Origin: Escherichia coli
GTDB lineage: Bacteria > Pseudomonadota > Gammaproteobacteria > Enterobacterales > Enterobacteriaceae
Assembly: GCF_030013595.1 (NCBI RefSeq)
Contig: NZ_CP122768.1
DNA: 64,000 bases
Reading direction: 5' to 3' (one strand)
Part shown: positions 3,644-3,819 of the stretch, in pieces
Numbering within the stretch: position 1 is the stretch's first letter
Layout of the letters: each line of letters starts with the position of its first letter
Notes under the pieces: model-generated
What the model was told of the DNA's origin: nothing
Seen by the model: the letters and a program-made list of their open reading frames with translations, nothing else
Databases searched by the model: none
Translations under genes and position numbers: made by a program

Positions 3644-3819
3644 TGGTTTGTTGCATCCCGATATTTTTAACTGACTGACAGCGCAATAAAGAGAATAATG
3701 ATTTCTGTTAGTGTCAGTACTGTGGCAAGGATTAAAAGCAGTTTTACTCTGCTTAATTCACGGTTGCTTTTCATATAAACGGTTAGTAAAAAACGGAAGA
3801 ATTATATTCTTCTTAATAT

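Follow-up and report, generated by a model that had tools for sequence, protein, structure and literature searches.

Introduction

Small single-pass membrane proteins of enterobacteria include AcrZ, MgtS and CydX. Short hydrophobic peptides are also known as the toxins of type I toxin–antitoxin systems, such as Hok/Gef, Ldr, TisB, Ibs, ShoB and Fst, of which Ldr is 35 amino acids (aa) long. Membrane partners have been described for SPFH proteins as well: NfeD accompanies stomatin/flotillin-like proteins, and FtsH is the partner of HflK/HflC. [quoted passage not shown] 2024, PMC11188072).

In this work, a 35-codon open reading frame (ORF) in the early region of a lambdoid prophage of Escherichia coli, designated orf35, was analysed. 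The window is the whole stretch of E. coli DNA that was examined, 64,000 nucleotides in length, and all coordinates refer to it. We put at about 0.55 the probability that orf35 is a genuine, unannotated gene encoding a lineage-restricted, single-pass inner-membrane microprotein, a prediction made from sequence.

Results

orf35 lies in an unannotated gap of the early-left operon

Positions 1–9000 of the window belong to a lambdoid prophage and make up its left (early) arm, in which an integrase gene (387–1649, minus strand) is followed by the excisionase gene and then by a run of minus-strand early genes; the run ends at a gene for a cI-like repressor (5703–6395), beyond which lies a divergent cro-like gene. 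The early region is 100% identical to that of E. coli ETEC1732 and, over a 601-nt region, 95% identical to that of the Stx2e phage phiP27 (NC_003356).

Within the run, a 176-nt gap (3644–3819) separates the stop codon (3822–3820) of the homologue of phiP27 L06 (3820–4401, minus strand; 193 aa by the PGAP start; phrog_1515) from the ATG (3643) of orf62 (3455–3643, minus strand), which encodes a 62-aa membrane protein with two transmembrane (TM) segments (phrog_1130). The gap carries no annotation in RefSeq/PGAP or in any of the 13 matching GenBank phage records; phiP27 carries the same gap and the same ORF, and its record annotates neither orf35 nor orf62. The initial annotation had reported here a minus-strand ORF of 35 codons between two early genes, and this proved exact in coordinates, translation and placement: orf35 (3667–3774, minus strand) runs from an ATG at 3774–3772 to a TAA at 3669–3667, with the L06 homologue upstream and orf62 downstream. 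It is preceded by an AU-rich spacer (3775–3819, minus strand) without a Shine–Dalgarno (SD) sequence and is separated from the orf62 ATG by 23 nt (3644–3666, minus strand) that contain no usable SD (−4.1 kcal/mol, mis-spaced).

The stop codon of orf62 overlaps the start of the next gene (ATGA), which encodes a 275-aa SPFH/Band-7 lipoprotein (2631–3458, minus strand; homologue of phiP27 L05; phrog_200) with weak similarity to HflK/HflC. The lipoprotein has the lipobox LVGC with Asp at position +2. By the +2 rule, Asp after the lipobox predicts retention in the inner membrane; the protein is thus predicted to be anchored there, with its SPFH domain in the periplasm. The lipoprotein gene is part of the early-left operon, the operon that in lambda holds the gene for cIII, an inhibitor of FtsH. 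A PADLOC search of four proteins, those of orf35 and its neighbours, gave no match. Nucleotide diversity (pi) was 0.146 in L06 compared with 0.02–0.05 in the gap and the cassette, indicating that the two parts have different histories.

Several further features of the region were recorded. Beyond its TAA the frame of orf35 contains eight more sense codons (3644–3669, minus strand) before a TGA that shares bases with the orf62 ATG (caATGA). An ancestral ORF of 44 codons, coupled to orf62, might have left this extension; the chance probability of such an extension is roughly 0.25. A 14-nt inverted repeat (3515–3528 and 3829–3842, 93% complementary) flanks orf35 and the 5′ half of orf62; it was rejected as a structure, with no compensatory change in 55 haplotypes, and is probably due to chance. 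No direct repeats were found around orf35, and a comparison of orf35 with the N-terminus of orf62, of which it might have been a duplicate, was negative. In about a third of haplotypes (L003 and related ones), the L06 gene is shorter, at 573 instead of 582 nt, and also differs by 1 nt close to its 3′ end (window-equivalent 3829–3842). The early-left operon has two more unannotated gaps of about 150–200 nt, at 4586–4785 and at about 4991–5147 (minus strand); the former holds a non-hydrophobic 37-aa ATG ORF (4704–4591) with a codon-usage log-likelihood ratio (LLR) of +0.07.

The predicted peptide is hydrophobic far beyond chance

The predicted product of orf35 is MKSNRELSRVKLLLILATVLTLTEIIILFIALSVS. 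It is predicted to span the membrane once with its N-terminus inside, having a basic N-terminal segment (MKSNRELSRVK, net charge +3) followed by a 24-residue hydrophobic helix. T21, T23 and E24 are invariant in ten aligned variants and in all 17 peptide variants seen, and E24 occupies a membrane-embedded position of the predicted helix. One face of this helix is made up of A17, T21, E24, L28, A31 and S35, the first three of which are invariant.

When the gap was shuffled with its dinucleotides preserved, 4.5% of the shuffles had an ATG ORF of 35 codons or more on the sense strand, showing that the length of orf35 alone is only mildly unusual. The highest Kyte–Doolittle mean over 19 residues (KD19) of orf35 is 2.75, a value that all 3000 composition-matched, stop-free random ORFs fell short of; it ranks second among the 323 ATG ORFs of 25–70 codons in the whole window, with only orf62 above it. 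The second codon position is T in 19 of the 35 codons. Codon usage, scored as an LLR trained on 40 long ORFs of the window, was +0.21 per codon, which places orf35 in the top 3% of 132 ORFs of 30–45 codons; the real neighbouring genes scored 0.18–0.35 (L06 0.24, L07 0.18), and the two shifted frames of orf35 gave −1.5 and −0.3. These results demonstrate that the hydrophobic character of orf35 is far beyond chance.

They also bear on a different reading of the locus, in which the gap is a recombination junction or spacer of a mosaic operon and orf35 is either a non-functional chance frame or the decaying remnant of the membrane anchor of an older gene. We hold this to be possible but doubtful. 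A chance ORF as hydrophobic as orf35 is very unlikely; the remnant of a membrane gene would account for the periodic hydrophobicity and for a codon usage like that of real genes with no present function, and also for the missing SD and the neutral dN/dS described below.

Other very hydrophobic small ATG ORFs of the window are located at 45285–45365 (minus strand; 26 aa, maximum KD19 2.62), 19900–20106 (minus strand; 68 aa, 2.51) and 22915–23097 (plus strand; 60 aa, 2.45), the latter two of which may be lysis or other membrane genes.

The start codon of orf35 lacks an SD sequence and lies in an open leader

Within the 22 nt preceding orf35, the most favourable anti-SD pairing was +1.2 kcal/mol, compared with a mean of −2.2 kcal/mol for the window background and −5 to −10 kcal/mol for the neighbouring genes. 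The initial annotation had seen no convincing ribosome-binding site, and the upstream sequence is indeed worse than background in this respect, as would be expected if orf35 had no function. The segment from −25 to +25 folds at −3.0 kcal/mol and thereby falls in the 8% of 50-mers with the least structure; the leader is AU-rich and open, and AAA follows the ATG as second codon. Since orf62 is also without an SD here and is nevertheless under purifying selection (see below), the absence of a ribosome-binding site is a weaker argument against orf35.

A literature search gave no match to the orf35 peptide, and the peptide is absent from the supplementary text of PMC11188072 as far as that text was accessible. 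The strains Sakai and EDL933, for which Ribo-seq exists, are not among the best-matching 60 of the 132 E. coli genomes with the locus.

Non-coding signals in the gap are weak on both strands

Directly after the L06 stop codon, the minus strand can form a weak hairpin (3812–3796; GAAGAAT-ATA-ATTCTTC, −4.9 kcal/mol) followed by a run of six T (3793–3788), and the same bases hold a perfect TATAAT (3806–3801) located 19 nt after GTGACA (3831–3826). If orf35 were non-functional, any function of the gap would be regulatory, as a leaky terminator after L06 or as a weak promoter for the SPFH cassette, and the position of the hairpin, the T run and the enclosed TATAAT is consistent with this. However, the hairpin was rejected as an intrinsic terminator, having two G-C pairs and failing the terminator scan, and the GTGACA/TATAAT pair was rejected as a promoter, its 19-nt spacing being poor (vs 16–18 nt) and the minus-strand scan reporting none. 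Moreover, the hairpin and the −10 element are disrupted without compensation in strains A34, RM7190 and LH50c, and T6 of the −10 element is lost in two strains.

The plus strand opposite the 3′ end of orf35 holds two sigma-70-like hexamer pairs that overlap each other at 3671–3702 (CTGACT-17-AATAAT and CTGACA-16-AATGAT, 9/12 each). They are the sole candidate promoter for an antisense RNA and would be central to a type I toxin–antitoxin system, in which orf35 would encode a membrane-depolarising toxin repressed by an antisense RNA that starts from these sites and crosses the orf35 start as far as the hairpin at 3796–3812. This hairpin is palindromic and would also form in the antisense transcript. 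The 35-aa length and single-TM composition of orf35, with its KD19 of 2.75, are typical of type I toxins, for which poor translation signals are usual. Nevertheless, we regard such a system as highly improbable. The two promoter-like sites are fewer than the 4.3 expected in shuffles. Folding of the 201-nt sense strand and of the antisense strand gave z = +0.43 and z = −0.64, respectively, compared to shuffles, indicating that neither strand is stably structured, and the start region of orf35 is open rather than sequestered. No toxin family in Pfam or NCBIfam matched at E values up to 10, and Rfam showed nothing relevant in the orf35 locus, antitoxin RNAs included. In addition, orf35 is co-directional with its operon, in which it has no promoter or terminator of its own, and the locus is confined to one synteny, whereas type I loci usually stand alone and are often multi-copy.

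Replacements in orf35 are conservative in a frame-specific manner

E. coli genomes and IMG/VR together supplied 73 copies (52 unique haplotypes), in each of which the ORF was 108 nt long and free of stops and frameshifts; with 16 metagenome copies added, about 90 copies were sampled, and all but one of them were intact. The exception, L063, has ATA in place of the ATG, and its neighbouring genes are intact; this one natural loss of the start codon is a point in favour of a non-functional orf35. Indels in the gap were found only in the upstream T run. Divergence is shallow, with at least 86% aa identity among the compared copies, and 28 random substitutions would leave orf35 open 53% of the time (P = 0.53), so that retention of the ORF is uninformative alone. 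The check proposed in the initial annotation, conservation of the ORF in homologous regions, was passed, but passing is expected in 53% of cases without selection at such divergence.

The 28 distinct substitutions in orf35 comprise 9 synonymous and 19 nonsynonymous changes, which equals the neutral expectation of 30%:68% and corresponds to a dN/dS by counts of about 1. In the same sample, the 3′ end of L06 had 37 synonymous and 36 nonsynonymous changes, and orf62 had 25 and 21, compared with an expectation of 30:69 (dN/dS about 0.37), demonstrating that orf62 is under purifying selection. The nucleotide diversity of orf35 (0.043) is that of the flanking spacers (0.049 and 0.040), and its variable columns are distributed 11/4/10 over the three codon positions, with no third-position excess; the SPFH gene shows the classical pattern, with diversities of 0.009/0.007/0.13. 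The neutral ratio and the spacer-like diversity are what a frame with no function would show.

The kind of replacement, however, points the other way. The 19 replacements in orf35 had a mean BLOSUM62 score of +0.89 compared with −0.21 to −0.43 under the null (P = 0.001–0.002), and the identical mutations read in the other five frames gave P = 0.17–0.94. Almost all replacements were conservative (S/N, I/L/F/V, A/V/T, S/G, E/D and N/D). Radical changes numbered 1 of 18 compared with 46% expected (P = 2e-4), where the neutral expectation was computed as 2.2% stops and 46% radical changes among replacements. In the helix, none of 13 changes was to a polar or charged residue, proline or a stop, compared with 30% expected (P = 0.01). 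A frame-specific depletion of radical changes at these levels (P about 0.001 and 2e-4) points to selection while this lineage diversified, and neither a relic nor a chance ORF would be expected to show it. The simplest reading would be that orf35 is translated and that its product has to remain a membrane helix, with little constraint otherwise. The earlier suspicion that orf35 may be noise keeps its force through the missing SD, the neutral synonymous:nonsynonymous ratio and the single shallow lineage; the depletion of radical changes and a hydrophobicity beyond chance speak against it.

orf35 is restricted to one lineage

Of 5426 complete E. coli genomes, 132 carry the gap sequence, in each case with no less than 90% nucleotide identity, and many of the carriers are STEC of serogroups O145, O111, O26 and O157. 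In 131 of the 132 genomes the gap lies between L06 and the orf62–SPFH pair. It was also found in 13 phage records, comprising phiP27 and Stx2a- and Stx2d-converting phages, in 61 IMG/VR contigs and in 16 metagenome contigs; a DNA scan showed that the 16 metagenome copies are all intact and are all known variants.

Searches for relatives outside this set were negative. Peptide-pattern scans showed no relative below 86% aa identity in IMG/VR and no match in 100,044 species-representative genomes, and no match was found in plasmids. An exhaustive HMMER profile search of 1.84 billion protein representatives showed no distant relative; its matches were one 35-aa JGI call of the identical family and one frameshifted L06–orf35 fusion. 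None of six orf35 peptide variants was found by exact look-up in a set of 15 billion proteins, and none of the Pfam, PHROG, NCBIfam and PADLOC families matched, even at E = 10. This narrow distribution would also suit a non-functional frame.

The JGI gene caller calls orf35 on four metagenome contigs. A 44-aa query consisting of orf35 and the in-frame residues upstream gave one match, a contig-edge NCBI entry of E. coli TW09195 named 'putative membrane protein, partial'. This open-ended 41-aa record owes its existence solely to three assemblies in which a contig stops shortly upstream of orf35. The three assemblies (L220, L221 and L222, position 1–3) are independent, and the ending of their contigs a few bases before orf35 suggests a repeat or assembly breakpoint at the junction of L06 and the gap, for example owing to two related prophages per genome.

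orf35 is associated with loss of the orf62 SD in a mosaic cassette

As a mobile cassette, the orf62–SPFH pair has at least four different upstream contexts, Klebsiella phages included. Without orf35, it follows a 90-aa gene (sampled loci L176–L185) or a 130-aa gene that neighbours a ParE-like gene (L013, L014, L187–L198 and L217–L219), or is located in Klebsiella phages (L018); conversely, L06 occurs without the cassette (L016 and L017). No orf35-like ORF was present upstream of orf62 in the other cassettes, showing that the cassette can in general do without orf35.

Homology breaks off at the exact edges of the gap: where L06 occurs without the cassette, homology ends just past the L06 stop codon, and where the cassette occurs without L06, homology starts at the orf62 ATG. 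Such breakpoints are in keeping with a gap that is a junction of a mosaic operon carrying a frame of no function.

In cassettes without orf35, orf62 is preceded by a strong SD, AGGAGG (−10.3 kcal/mol) in E. coli and GGAGG (−9.8 kcal/mol) in the Klebsiella phage L018. This SD is lost only in the phiP27-type lineage, where the residual duplex of −4.1 kcal/mol has the wrong spacing. Presence of orf35 and loss of the orf62 AGGAGG are thus perfectly associated, and the segment carrying orf35 has replaced the orf62 SD in the phiP27 lineage. This association raises the possibility that orf35 is purely a leader ORF, translated only for termination–reinitiation at orf62, with a peptide that has no function of its own. 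The 23-nt distance from the orf35 stop codon to the orf62 ATG would fit such a role, as would the dN/dS by counts of about 1. Nonetheless, we judge it very unlikely, because an irrelevant peptide should tolerate radical replacements, yet these are depleted; the extreme hydrophobicity would be left unexplained; and orf35 is itself SD-less, which only shifts the ribosome-loading problem upstream.

Two other arrangements were seen among the cassettes. In one alternative SPFH context, a 72-aa 'ParE family toxin-like protein' gene is located two genes upstream (L013, 536–754; L014, 527–745) and overlaps its neighbours. In E. coli EC11 (L008, 768–981), the place after orf62 that otherwise belongs to the 828-nt SPFH gene is taken by a 756-nt gene annotated as 'tail fiber assembly protein', and this cassette may be rearranged or chimeric.

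Discussion

The data presented here argue for orf35 as the gene of a small membrane protein. The initial annotation had compared it to type I toxins or small membrane regulators; composition, codon usage, integrity of the ORF and conservative replacements favour a small membrane protein, and the comparison with a type I toxin is not supported, no matching family and no structured RNA having been found.

If orf35 is such a gene, it would share a transcript with the two genes directly downstream, orf62 and the SPFH lipoprotein gene, as part of the early-left operon that phiP27-like (Stx2a/2d/2e-type) lambdoid prophages carry in E. coli. Its translation would start without an SD on the AU-rich, almost unstructured leader. 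The peptide is predicted to insert N-in, with the basic N-terminus in the cytoplasm and the helix ending at the periplasmic face, and may act in the membrane with the orf62 and SPFH proteins, perhaps through the conserved A17–T21–E24 face of the helix; the complete face from A17 to S35 would suit helix–helix packing. As the orf35 stop codon lies so close before the SD-less start of orf62, ribosomes terminating on orf35 could help to initiate orf62. The same elements could be extended to a three-part inner-membrane module of orf35, orf62 and the HflK/C-like SPFH protein, in which translation of orf35 would start orf62 and the module would modulate FtsH or membrane microdomains, and thereby the lysis–lysogeny decision or superinfection exclusion of Stx-converting phages. 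We consider this extended proposal very unlikely.

If orf35 is translated, phiP27-type Stx2a/2d/2e-converting phages carry one early gene beyond their annotation, beside an uncharacterised SPFH module. Should the main reading be true, orf35 would neatly exemplify a microprotein restricted to one lineage in which the constraint is on hydrophobic character and not on exact sequence, and such genes are overlooked both by standard dN/dS screens and by SD-dependent gene callers. The locus would also lend itself naturally to studies of how translation starts independently of an SD and how it is coupled to a downstream gene whose SD has been lost. Its main value would be an annotation correction for the early regions of Stx phages; if orf35 is untranslated, nothing of consequence follows. 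Because hydrophobic intergenic smORFs are described as very common in Enterobacteriaceae (PMC11188072), either outcome would be unsurprising to a specialist.

Among known systems, the type I toxins resemble orf35 in being short and hydrophobic, with weak translation signals and a location in prophages. They differ in that orf35 is embedded in an operon, lacks a promoter or terminator of its own and showed neither a family match, an antitoxin RNA match nor a structured mRNA. The comparison with the membrane partners of SPFH proteins is likewise mixed. Neither orf35 nor orf62 has an NfeD domain (no Pfam match), and orf62 separates orf35 from the SPFH gene; the likeness lies in small membrane-protein genes that are operon-linked to an SPFH gene, whose product is predicted to be periplasmic and is weakly HflK/HflC-like.

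The membrane microproteins of enterobacteria provide the remaining comparison. Unlike these, orf35 is related to no described family, is phage-borne and confined to one shallow lineage, and shows no dN/dS signal below 1. Like them, it has fewer than 50 codons, encodes one helix with a basic cytoplasmic end, has been missed by annotation and lies in a short AT-rich intergenic region near larger membrane-protein genes, whose products are possible partners. Taken together, these features suggest that orf35, although it belongs to no described family, is probably a further membrane microprotein of the enterobacterial type.
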